Positions 13,820 to 18,000 of a stretch of 64,000 nucleotides of DNA are shown here, piece by piece. Both the position numbers and the translations under genes were made by a program. The stretch comes from Paecilomyces variotii (lineage: Eukaryota), in the NCBI GenBank assembly GCA_004022145.1, contig RCNU01000002.1; one strand, 5' to 3'. The notes under the pieces were generated by a model. That model ran no database searches and was not told the origin of the DNA. It was given only the letters and a program-made list of their open reading frames with translations. Every line of letters begins with the position of its first letter. Position 1 is the stretch's first letter.

Positions 13820-15131
13820 AGACGGGATCCGACGGGATAAATTGGGCCAAATCACGGAGAGAAAAAAGGGAACAAAGACCCCAGCCCCTGGAGTTGTCTA
13901 GAATGGGGATATGGAACTGGGGAAAGCGTCGAGATGCGTTGAGGCATTGCCCAGCTTAAAGCATGAATTCCAACCCCCTCCAGATCTCCATGACTTCACC
14001 GTTTTCGTTGCTTGCCGATTCAGTGCCGATCCGGCAGACGTCATTGTCCGCCCGTCTTCTTGCCAAGCGGGAAAGAAAAGGTTCGTTATTATCATCATTA
14101 TTATTATGCTACAGCAGCATCGCACCAGATCATCTTCTTTATATTCTCATCCATATAGAATTCCCTCCAGCCGATACAATTGAGGTCTGATTTCTGCCAT
14201 CTTCTATCTACTCTGGAGTCTATCTACCCTGATTTTCATGGCTCGTGCTCTAGTTCTATAATCTTCTCCAGGATTAAACATCCCGTCAGCCACCGGCTTC
14301 ACGGGCGCAGATTGGCGCCGGGAGGGGCGTCTCTTGGCAAGGCAACGGATACTCTTCTTCCCGCTGTGCAGAATATCTATAATAAATCAAAGAGAACCAA
14401 ATATTAAGTTACGATCAGACTGCGTGACGACCACATGTTGGCTGTGCAGAGGATATGGTGGGCAGCAGATTAAGCGCCAAGAGAGGTCCTGATCCTGTCA
14501 CAAGGCTGTATCCAGATTCCAGCGGCTCAGCCACGCTGCTTGGGGGTTCATTGGAATCCTCCAGGCTGGACTTACGATTCAAGTCCGCCCGTCACTGCTA
14601 AATCCTGATCTATTTCCAGAATATCTGATTATTTCAGGTGCCTGCATGTCCATGTCATCTAGTTACTCGCCATCCGCAGCAAGCTGACGATATACATAGG
14701 GCTGTGGCAGATCATCTGAGTGACCATATTTCTTGCGCATGCGGGATTACAGCTTGCCAATAATCGTCATGCGATGAGAATAAATCATAGTTAATTAAAA
14801 TAAGTCAATAATCCTCAATTAACCCTGTGTCTAACCAGGCTTCCTTTTGCATCGACAATTAAGCAACCGAACCAGCCACGCTGCCGTCGATGACAACCGT
14901 CAAACGAGGCCCAAGTAGGTACAAGCAAATCATCAGCTGTGATGACTGATAATAGAGAACAAGAGAAAAGAAAAGAAAAGCAAAGAAAAAAAGTGAAATT
15001 TCCATCCCAATGCAGACCCTCTCTATCAGAACTCCGTTACGTTTCTTTTGCCGCATAAGCCACGATGGGTTTGGTCAACAGACACAAGAGAACAAGACCA
15101 GATGAACAACCCGTATAGGGGGAGGACTAAA

Positions 15132-16448
15132 TCATTTCCGACGACCGCGCCGTGCCCGGGCCCCTCGAGTAGCACTTGCTGTAGTAGTAGCGCGTGTCTG
15201 GGCCCCGGTTGCGACTGGTTTCTCCACTGCCACCTTCACACCATTTCTTCCATCATCCTCACTCTCATCGTCGTCTTCGCTGCTGGAGTCTTCGCTCGAA
15301 GACTCCGTAGGGGCACGCTGGGGGCTCGTAGATTCCGACGAGCTGCTATCGTCAGAAGGAGATCGACGCGCGGCTCGATAGGGAACATCAGGAAAGCCGG
15401 CGACGTCTCTGCGCACATGGTAACCATATCGGGGATCCATCGGACCATAGGGCGGGTAATCTGCAGGGTCAAGCGGATATGGTACAGCATTCGAGGACGC
15501 CCGTGATCGAGGCATCCACTGAGGATCATCCGGAAGGGGACGGGGGAAGGCCTGGTATCGAGATGAGGAAGTTGGGCGATGCTCTGAAACGGAAGCGTAG
15601 CGCTGAGGAAGATGGGAACGGGGCGACGAGCCCGGTTGCTGCGCTCTGGACGACTGGGAAGATGGCGTTCGGGGTCTCTGAGAAGAAGAGCTGGACGGGC
15701 GACCTCCAGGGGAGGAATAATAACTGGAGGGTACACCTCTGGTTCTTGTCCACCCTCCATAAGGCTCGTCACTCGGCTGAGGGCGTTCAGCTGCCAAAGA
15801 AGCAGGCATGCTCTTTCGTTTCTCCATCTTGTCGGATTTTCCCTTCGTTGTCGGCTTCCCGTTCTTGCTCTTGCTCTTATCCTTGTCCTTGTCTTTGCTC
15901 TTGTCCTTGCGCTTTTCGGTCAGGGATGGTTGGCTGCTGGCACCCTTCTTCCGCTGCGTTTCTTTGCTTCCGGTGCTGCGCATCCTCCTCCTTTCCAGTG
16001 CATCCAGCTCTTCCTGTGACAAGCGAACATTCTTTTTGCCCATCAGCTGAGCGCGTCGGATCCGTTCGAGTGCTTTGTCCACCAGCCGCTCTTCTTTGTC
16101 CATCATCGCCAGCTGGACGGCATATGCAACGGTGCTGTCGGCATCGCTATCCAGGTTATAATCGACCCCCTCAGAAGACTCCGTCTCATCCTCGTACTCA
16201 TAACTCCGTCGCCTCGGCTGCCGCCTGCTGCCATCCCGTCGCAGACCATGGTATTCATCCAGCAGCGCACCACGATCATAATCATCCTCCTCGCTCTCAA
16301 TCTCCTCCACACGCGCTTCGTCAGCGTCATCATCCCACTGCAACCCTCGCCTCCTGACTTGTCTCCCCAGTTGTGCCCCTGGTGGTCTTCCCCATCGGGG
16401 CATATCGTAAGGAGTTCGCGGCCGACCACCTAGACCGCCTCCTCGGAA
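15132..16448 (-). CDS. -1 frame extension of Yip3: charged and Ser/Arg/Pro-rich region, 438 aa from the shift site (first in-frame ATG at 16403)
   Basis: The long ORF is open from 16466 to 15132 in the -1 frame relative to YIP3. It overlaps the YIP3 end, and its ATG lies only 26 nt past the YIP3 stop. Confidence 0.8.
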   Translation of the reverse strand, partial: FRGGGLGGRPRTPYDMPRWGRPPGAQLGRQVRRRGLQWDDDADEARVEEIESEEDDYDRGALLDEYHGLRRDGSRRQPRRRSYEYEDETESSEGVDYNLDSDADSTVAYAVQLAMMDKEERLVDKALERIRRAQLMGKKNVRLSQEELDALERRRMRSTGSKETQRKKGASSQPSLTEKRKDKSKDKDKDKSKSKNGKPTTKGKSDKMEKRKSMPASLAAERPQPSDEPYGGWTRTRGVPSSYYSSPGGRPSSSSSQRPRTPSSQSSRAQQPGSSPRSHLPQRYASVSEHRPTSSSRYQAFPRPLPDDPQWMPRSRASSNAVPYPLDPADYPPYGPMDPRYGYHVRRDVAGFPDVPYRAARRSPSDDSSSSESTSPQRAPTESSSEDSSSEDDDESEDDGRNGVKVAVEKPVATGAQTRATTTASATRGARARRGRRK

Positions 16449-16451
16449 AAA
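16381..16451 (-). other. Programmed -1 ribosomal frameshift signal: slippery U UUU UCC, 6-nt spacer, H-type pseudoknot
   Basis: Heptamer 16451-16445 lies in the YIP3 frame (GCT TTT TCC). Stem 1 is GCGGUC (16438-16433) with GGCCGC (16423-16418). Stem 2 is GGUGGUC (16430-16424) with GACCACC (16387-16381). Confidence 0.85.
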
Positions 16452-16954
16452 GCATTCTCGATTGGTTTATCCATAAGTGAAGCGTGACCGAAGACAGTCA
16501 CACCAGTAGCGCCGATGAGCCACAGGACCGTCGTGAAGGGCGAACCCAGGATACCCATGGGCACGGCAACAACGAGCAGACCAGTGTAAAGCTGGGATGT
16601 CGTGAAGCGGGCGAAACCCAGGTCGAGATCACGCCCACCCAGCTTGCCAATACCGTAGAGACCACCAGTGACCAGGATGATGACGAAGAGCAACATCAGG
16701 TTGGTGAGCAGGCTGTAGATGCTGAGCATGAGAAAGACGGCGGCATAGTTGCTGGAGAAGTAGGACAGGTTGTAGTTGACGCGACTCTGCACCTCACCAA
16801 AGTTGGCCGGTTTGGAGAGACGCTTCAGGTCCAGAAACTCAGAGATAGGCTTCAGGTTGGCAAAACGACTGCTGATCGATTGAGCGCGGACGCTGTTGAA
16901 GCGATCAGTGAAGCGCGAAGTGATCGCGTCGAGAGGGATCTGGAGAGGAGCCAT
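16430..16954 (-). CDS. YIP3: Prenylated Rab acceptor 1 (PRA1) / Yip3 Rab-GDI displacement factor, 174 aa
   Basis: PRA1 motifs LKPISEFLD..RLSKPANF..VQSRVNYNLSYFSSNY, two long hydrophobic hairpins, and GHASLMDKPIE. Confidence 0.93.
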   Translation of the reverse strand: MAPLQIPLDAITSRFTDRFNSVRAQSISSRFANLKPISEFLDLKRLSKPANFGEVQSRVNYNLSYFSSNYAAVFLMLSIYSLLTNLMLLFVIILVTGGLYGIGKLGGRDLDLGFARFTTSQLYTGLLVVAVPMGILGSPFTTVLWLIGATGVTVFGHASLMDKPIENAFSEEAV

Positions 16955-18000
16955 TGTGCGGTGTAGGGAGGGCCAGACTATAAATGCTCGCGCTGATGAT
17001 GAAAGCGAGGGAGAGTATTGACGCTCGATAGAAGTGCCGGTGCGTATACGATCGTGACGAGGCGGACGGGGAATGGAAAGAGTGAGCTGGCCAGAAGCGA
17101 TGTTTTGCAGGGCCGAGCCAGGGGAGTGGAAAAAGCTGGCCAGCTAACTAAGTAGCGGCTCCTGACAAGCTGGGCCAACGAGCGGTCGGATAATCGTCCA
17201 GCTCCAGCGAGATCTCGAGTCGTGTCTCCAGAGATATCAGAGATATCAATACTCCAGTTGATCGGAACCACACACACAAAGAAAAAGAAAGTGCTGGGCT
17301 AGAGACGAGTCTCTGAGACCTTCTGGCGGGCTGCCGTGCTGTCCACGGCAGTCTCCAAAACCGCACTGGGCGCAGAGAAGAAAAGGTTCTAGCTAGGGAT
17401 GAGGGCGATGCTGATGCTTTTAAATCGAAGACCAGAGACAAGTAGTAGATCCACCAGTCCACTGCAGAGCAGATCCTGCATCCAACTTCTTTCTGCTGTC
17501 AGCAGTAGGATAAGTCAATTAACTAGAGCGTTTCTTTATCCGCAGAGCGAGCTTCACCAGGCCCGCTCCATGGCGACTCTTCCAGCCTCAGGTTCCTGCT
17601 GGCAATCCCCGCGTCGTATGGTATATGCCCTCCAGGTTCTACACTCGAGACATTACTGAGACTGCCCTTTATATATTACCCTTTTCCCCTTCCCTGCCAA
17701 CCCTGGGGGAGAATAATGGCAGGATGCTGATTTGAAGCTGCTTGTCTCTCTTCCCCGACCTGTAAGTTTTCCCTGCCGCCCGTTATTGGGCCACGTCGAC
17801 GCACTACGGCAGCTCGAACGCCTCCAGGCGGTCTGGCAGCTGCTGGACAGATCATATCGCAGTGCAGACCCTGTAGAAAGTCTCCATCGATCTCCCACTA
17901 CGCTCGCATCTAACTTCGCCCTACCCTTTCTAATTCACTGGTACCATCTTTGAAGCCGTCGTTGGGCATAGCGACTGTGTTCGCACATTGCCAGCCCAAC

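Follow-up and report, generated by a model that had tools for sequence, protein, structure and literature searches.

The locus described here lies on the minus strand of a 64,000-nt stretch of DNA from Paecilomyces variotii (contig RCNU01000002.1 of GenBank assembly GCA_004022145.1; the whole stretch is referred to below as the window), and consists of a gene for a YIP3/PRA1 protein (prenylated Rab acceptor) and of a second open reading frame (ORF) overlapping its 3' end. A preliminary description of the window had proposed that the two are joined by a programmed -1 ribosomal frameshift. A gene of this organization is PaYIP3 of Podospora anserina, in which the YIP3 ORF is followed, in the -1 frame, by a 3' ORF specific to Pezizomycotina (Malagnac et al., 2013; PMC3777964).

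The first ORF (ORF1, 16954-16430, minus strand) comprises 174 codons and a TAG stop; according to the sequence and the ORF list, it starts with the ATG at 16954 and ends with GCT TTT TCC GAG GAG GCG GTC TAG. Its translation matches the Pfam family PF03208 (PRA1) over residues 30-170 with an E value of 5.6e-41, is 61-85% identical to the ORF1 products of the 43 metagenome loci presented below, and has 258 longer PRA1 relatives, every named one of which is from Pezizomycotina. The second frame, displaced by -1 relative to ORF1, extends over 16466-15132 on the same strand, that is, 444 codons from stop to stop (16466-15135) and a TGA at 15134-15132. It is closed upstream by a TAA at 16469-16467; its overlap with ORF1 is therefore 37 nt, and any shift between the frames must fall there. 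The first ATG of the -1 frame (16403-16401, minus strand), 26 nt past the ORF1 TAG, is the start used by split gene models and is not conserved; from there, the second ORF (ORF2) encodes 423 aa, and a database protein of 423 aa is 100% identical to its product. A -1 shift at the slippery heptamer described below gives a 607-aa fusion, 437-438 codons of which are from the -1 frame. The coordinates of ORF1, ORF2, the TAA and the heptamer, as well as the -1 relation of the frames, had all been given correctly in the preliminary description, as a check against the sequence and the ORF list showed, and its lengths (a 174-aa short form, a 423-aa second ORF and a fusion of about 607 aa) agree with ours.

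The heptamer, U UUU UCC in the frame of ORF1 (16451-16445; this and the following elements are all on the minus strand), occupies codons 168-170, including Phe169 and Ser170, and lies inside the overlap; after a -1 slip, the codon in the A site becomes UUC. A 2-nt spacer, GA (16444-16443), separates it from a stem (stem 1, 16442-16411), which in the minimum free energy fold has its 5' arm at 16442-16433 and its 3' arm at 16423-16418 and 16414-16411. The 3' arm carries a 3-nt bulge, GAA (16417-16415, columns 43-45 of the alignment discussed below), in agreement with the description of PaYIP3, and the 9-nt loop UAGGUGGUC (16432-16424) contains the zero-frame stop UAG (16432-16430), four codons past the heptamer. 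The fold of the window is a 12-pair stem directly past the heptamer (-32.3 kcal/mol), and in the window alone the spacer bases may lengthen stem 1 by pairing with 16410-16409. The outer pairs concerned (16-51 and 17-50 in the alignment) are, however, present in only part of the sequences, so that a spacer of the published 2 nt remains.

The conservation of this region was analysed by scanning metagenome contigs with the ORF2 alignment, which yielded 46 loci. Three of them were cut before ORF1, leaving 43 usable ones; together with the window, these provided 44 shift regions, which reduce to 25 distinct sequences of 120 nt. In the window, and equally in every one of the 43 loci containing ORF1, the displacement of ORF2 against ORF1 is -1. 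Where the preliminary description had expected an invariant TTTTTCC at the YIP3 3' ends together with a -1 ORF, TTTTTC and the -1 ORF proved invariant (T TTT TC in 25/25 distinct shift regions), while the heptamer ends in C in 23 regions, in A in L007 and in T in L045. Because only this final base varies, the -1 A-site codon is UUC in all 25. The zero-frame TAG is likewise at the same position in 25/25 sequences, and columns 7-49 of their alignment are almost invariant. Identity at third codon positions of ORF1, compared over 24 sequences (L021 was omitted, its contig being too short), is 0.97 in the last seven codons, as against a mean of 0.52 in codons -80 to -8 and 0.71 in the best seven-codon window of that stretch. 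The third positions are thus frozen at the very end of ORF1, which implies a constraint at the nucleotide level beyond the coding of ORF1. Judging from its recurrence in all 25 distinct regions, the arrangement of heptamer, stop and frame is more than chance.

In a number of loci (L008, L014, L017, L026, L037, L039, L040, L001 and L006), the -1 frame is open for 193-322 nt upstream of the ORF1 stop, compared with just 25-37 nt in the remaining ones. In many species, therefore, the position of the shift is set only by the conserved heptamer, and not by flanking stops.

As for stem 1, its 10 core pairs form in 25/25 sequences. Two kinds of change were observed, i.e. a compensatory GC to AU at columns 24/40 (three loci) and UG to UA at columns 26/38 (two loci). 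Counted by cells, eight are changed on both sides, a number reached by 1/500 shuffles. In addition, a comparison by eye with the Podospora fragment printed in the 2013 paper reveals a further compensatory change at columns 23/41, where the fragment has U-A and each of our 25 sequences C-G. No Rfam family matched 16250-16560 at E <= 1.

The C-terminal extension encoded by ORF2 has 289 homologues at E <= 1e-3 among 8000 candidates scored, and all the named ones belong to Pezizomycotina; the best named relatives are from Paecilomyces variotii (82%), P. lecythidis (81%) and Thermoascus (about 48%), in keeping with a host of the Thermoascaceae (Eurotiales) close to Paecilomyces. The extension matched no Pfam family at E <= 0.1, and the ESM Atlas returned, besides a cluster of its own kind, one weak lead at 0.84. 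An AlphaFold2 model based on a 26-sequence alignment is mostly disordered, with a mean predicted local distance difference test (pLDDT) score of 50.5. The only confidently folded part (pLDDT > 90) is a helical hairpin formed by residues 111-142 and 151-173 of the 444-aa frame (15948-16136, minus strand). This is also the most conserved protein segment, containing 10 of the 14 invariant columns of alignment A1, and its helical core shares 46% identity over 41 residues (E 4e-8) with the tail of a fused model from Podospora conica. The tail, which is rich in Ser, Pro and Arg, is hence predicted to be largely disordered, with one conserved helical hairpin.

Public gene models describe this locus in discordant ways. 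Most of the 120 ORF2 matches listed are ORF2-only models without a PRA1 domain, while among 113 long PRA1 models, four stop at the ORF1 stop and 109 continue beyond it. Of the junctions in the long models, six precede the site and lead into the -1 frame, 12 lie within or just past the segment GGLGGRPR..WGRP, and about 90 are further downstream; the exact -1 product is read by only one of the 113 (P0084). The behaviour anticipated for gene predictors, splitting of the locus or invention of an intron, is therefore borne out, both by the ORF2-only models and by the scattered junctions of the 109. P0084 (ENA, 410 aa) was considered as a possible natural in-frame allele and rejected: compared with the nearest locus, L006, its source changes frame at three other places, and is hence probably an indel-ridden, error-prone assembly. 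Tail-only models of 340-450 aa (P0003, P0015, P0029 and P0056 are examples) are often named 'Prenylated Rab acceptor 1' in spite of having no PF03208 domain; it seems that split models acquired the name from fused ones.

Eight runs recorded as RNA contain part of the stretch. We examined X6, X8 and X12, which are from three studies, and X1, whose library type is a guess. Long RNA contigs cover ORF2 (15184-16402 in X8; 15017-15969 and 15987-16402 in X6), and X1, with the reservation just made about its type, is alone in spanning the whole locus (14700-17567), without any difference. Among the contigs listed for these four runs, neither a joint between the ORFs nor an insertion or deletion in the U run was seen. 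Some further features of the contigs should be mentioned. A 1227-nt RNA contig of X6 (record 13) matches only 16362-16435, with four differences, and then diverges; it could come from a second transcript of YIP3 type, or else from another fungus, although the run is labelled as a single organism. Another X6 contig has a joint (17001-17068) that skips 66 nt of the 5' untranslated region (17002-17067). It is a single contig with non-canonical GT..TT ends, and was not used; as the Podospora 5' untranslated region has a 173-bp intron, the skip could be a poorly aligned intron, or else a deletion in a diverged strain. Finally, one contig of the X8 metatranscriptome has a joint (15072-16333) skipping 1260 nt, i.e. 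nearly all of the extension ORF. It was not used either and is probably an assembly artefact, in view of its non-canonical ends and of its shorter flank of 44 nt.

We interpret the locus as an orthologue of the PaYIP3-type programmed -1 frameshift, which would make a 174-aa and a 607-aa form, and we assign to this interpretation a probability of about 0.86. The PaYIP3 precedent had already been invoked in the preliminary description, and rightly so: the published account has a matching heptamer, spacer and bulged stem, and reports conservation in Pezizomycotina (PMC3777964). In P. anserina, the long form was detected in vivo by green fluorescent protein tagging and Western blot (PMC3777964). 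The arrangement was found conserved in all the Pezizomycotina examined, save Ascosphaera apis and Arthrobotrys oligospora, with a +1 version in Capnodiales and Ophiostomatales (PMC3777964). From the sequence anatomy, its conservation and the Podospora precedent, we infer that the long form is produced in this species as well. Being the orthologue of a published and experimentally studied recoding event, the one proposed here is already known, and involves no new mechanism. Our literature searches returned the 2013 paper and one review, which in the part available mentions PaYIP3 once, and no follow-up on the mechanism.

According to this interpretation, one unspliced mRNA would bear both frames. 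The majority of ribosomes would end at the UAG (16432-16430) and release the short Rab-acceptor protein, while a minority would slip by -1 on U UUU UCC (16451-16445) and read on to 15135, yielding a 607-aa protein in which YIP3 carries a tail of about 437 residues. In a tandem slip, tRNA-Phe would move from UUU to UUU and tRNA-Ser(IGA) from UCC to UUC through a G-U pair; alternatively, the P-site tRNA-Phe alone might slip. The GC-rich bulged stem 2 nt downstream would aid the slip, probably as part of a pseudoknot. The two routes give products of the same length that differ at the junction. The junction originally predicted, ...ENAF-FRGGG, and the peptide PIENAFFR suggested for mass spectrometry hold for P-site slippage alone; tandem slippage, which is the route favoured in the Results of the PaYIP3 paper (PMC3777964), would produce ...ENAFS-RGGG and PIENAFSR instead.

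With regard to function, the Podospora long form was inactive alone and was absent from the fruiting-body centre (PMC3777964). Our best guess, following that paper, is that the long form could represent a YIP3 pool that is regulated, unstable or under different control.

Several observations weigh against the frameshift interpretation. The sequence U UUU UCC is outside the canonical X XXY YYZ pattern, and the 2-nt spacer is unusually short, outside the range of 5-9 nt; the PaYIP3 paper likewise remarks on the departure from X XXY YYZ and from the usual spacer (PMC3777964). The energy of the window fold is unremarkable (z -1.63, matched by 9/200 shuffles), and covariation in stem 1 is thin, in that two pairs are changed on both sides and 355/500 shuffles attain this number; this weakness is due to the fact that the element hardly varies. 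In a yeast reporter, the PaYIP3 signal promoted a low 1% of shifting, compared with 0.3% for an out-of-frame control, and its structure gave no stimulation of the slippery site of infectious bronchitis virus (IBV) (PMC3777964). Moreover, the contigs listed for X6, X8 and X12 break between 16403 and 16447, and none bridges the site; the positions uncovered among them are 16436-16447 in X6 and 16403-16432 in X8, and we draw no inference from gaps or depth. The last point to be considered, the presence of an ATG only 26 nt past the ORF1 stop, leads to the rival explanations.

ORF2 might be translated independently from the ATG at 16403, either by reinitiation or from a transcript starting inside ORF1, in which case no fusion protein would exist here. 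The ATG is present in the window and in nine other distinct loci, and a separate ORF2 protein is called in most public models; however, in 15 of the 25 loci it is missing, and the first in-frame Met there is located 77-164 codons past the shift site, beyond the invariant WGRP. In addition, 14 of the 26 aligned proteins extend beyond the Met on its upstream side, and all 14 read FFRGGGLGGRPRTP there, while 10 of them have S, V, T or L at the place of the Met itself. In both X6 and X8, which are from different studies, an RNA contig terminates at 16402. This is a faint indication that a transcript ends there, but a transcript beginning at 16402 would itself be devoid of the ATG. Furthermore, these ends fall at the border of an ultra-conserved block that is shared with another X6 contig (record 13); since de Bruijn contigs can be interrupted at the edge of such a shared block, the ends more likely reflect graph branching. 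Finally, reinitiation past a 174-codon ORF is inefficient in eukaryotes. Taken as a whole, independent translation of ORF2 appears very improbable.

Even less probability can be given to the two explanations that would change the mRNA, and we rate them alike. If a short intron took out the stop and shifted the frame, the long form would arise by alternative splicing, as could be suggested by the 109/113 long PRA1 models that pass the ORF1 stop; many models leave ORF1 directly past ...SGEA or ...SEEA, which is consistent with the GT of GGTCTAG acting as a donor. On the other hand, the junctions vary even inside one genus, the Colletotrichum models resuming at several places, and most intron models remove the invariant FFRGGGLGGRPRTP..WGRP segment. 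No GTRNGT donor occurs in any of the 213 frame-keeping GT..AG pairs of the window, and no joint linking the ORFs was found among the contigs listed for the three RNA runs from three studies; in Podospora, 12 complementary DNAs (cDNAs) are collinear with the gene here (PMC3777964). The other explanation is transcriptional slippage, in which RNA polymerase would stutter on the T5 run and add a U. Its product would coincide with that of P-site slippage (..AFFRGG..), and the database protein P0084 does read so. Yet five Us are short for polymerase slippage, and an inserted base at 16445-16451 is present in no contig examined, with the proviso that contigs drop rare variants. Polymerase slippage would also leave the conserved downstream structure unexplained, and the Podospora cDNAs are unedited (PMC3777964).

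Returning to programmed frameshifting, the actual stimulatory element may extend beyond the one assayed in 2013. The sequence GACCACC (16387-16381, minus strand), which lies 37 nt downstream of the stem 1 loop, is a perfect complement of the loop bases GGUGGUC (16430-16424), and is a candidate for the 3' strand of a pseudoknot stem 2; its form in the alignment is GACCA(C/U)C. In 25/25 sequences, of all sites in the 121 nt downstream it forms the best duplex with the loop, at energies between -13.1 and -6.2 kcal/mol. The energy of the window, -13.1 kcal/mol, is matched by 1/200 mononucleotide shuffles, and those of the other sequences by 0 to 68/200. Pairing is possible in 98.7% of cells for this distal second stem (columns 30-36 with 73-79) and in 81.8% for a proximal one (columns 30-34 with 57-61). 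The proximal stem shows no compensatory changes. The distal pairing would form an H-type pseudoknot with a loop 1 of 2 nt, a stem 2 of 7 bp and a loop 3 of 21 nt. These dimensions resemble those of the IBV pseudoknot (stem 1 of 10-12 bp). The coding sequence here also shows almost no synonymous variation: the WGRP codons GGA AGA CCA are fixed in 25/25 sequences, compared with 23%, 13% and 30% of the respective synonymous families elsewhere in these ORFs, and third positions of the -1 frame are essentially invariant to about codon 24 past the shift site.

It is conceivable, therefore, that the loop GGUGGUC and GACCACC form an IBV-like long-range H-type pseudoknot, although we consider this idea doubtful. 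Against it stand the lack of compensatory changes in the distal stem, an A-C mismatch in two loci (L013 and L021), and the fact that RNAalifold favours a local second hairpin sharing some of the bases. It should be noted that the fragment used in the 2013 yeast reporter, 59 nt as printed and corresponding to columns 7-65, is without the GACCACC strand, which might account for the efficiency of 1% and for the lack of stimulation at the IBV slippery site. The frozen downstream element is outside that fragment and thus represents a candidate part of the stimulator, and a lead beyond the 2013 paper.

The significance of the locus is related to the long persistence of the YIP3 frameshift, conserved for more than 400 million years, with a signal in the window that agrees with those of 24 other distinct environmental sequences at nearly every base. 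It also has a practical side, because public annotations are systematically wrong here, the gene being split, fused through invented introns, or represented by a misnamed tail only.

Among known systems, PaYIP3 is the closest. The two genes share a PRA1/YIP3 5' ORF, a 3' ORF that is lineage-specific and displaced by -1, the heptamer at about codon 170 (codon 170 in PaYIP3), a 2-nt spacer, the GC-rich stem 1 with its bulge, a UAG four codons on, and the helical core of the extension; in the published account, the element 2 nt downstream is a stem-loop or pseudoknot whose stem 1 has a conserved bulge of 3 nt (PMC3777964). They differ in the host, Paecilomyces (Eurotiales) rather than Podospora; the main text of the PaYIP3 paper names no Eurotiales species. 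The same gene and extension occur in Capnodiales and Ophiostomatales, but in the +1 frame and, in Mycosphaerella, with an altered U run (PMC3777964); by contrast, only the -1 type was encountered here, in the window as in the 43 loci. The Saccharomyces cerevisiae YIP3 (YNL044W) is an orthologous Rab-GDI displacement factor of the PRA1 family, described without a 3' ORF and without a frameshift. More distant is the IBV 1a/1b signal, which has in common with the one proposed here the -1 shift and, in its H-type pseudoknot, a long GC-rich stem 1. It uses the canonical heptamer U UUA AAC with a 6-nt spacer and is reported to reach 10-15% in yeast, whereas the site in the window is non-canonical, has a spacer of 2 nt, and is part of a cellular gene. 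The mammalian PEG10/Edr and Ma3 (PNMA) are cellular proteins extended by -1 frameshifting, and the pseudoknot of Edr even has a 3-nt bulge. These genes are derived from retroelements, while YIP3 is not, and YIP3 was accordingly called the first cellular -1 frameshift extending a protein without a retroelement origin (PMC3777964).

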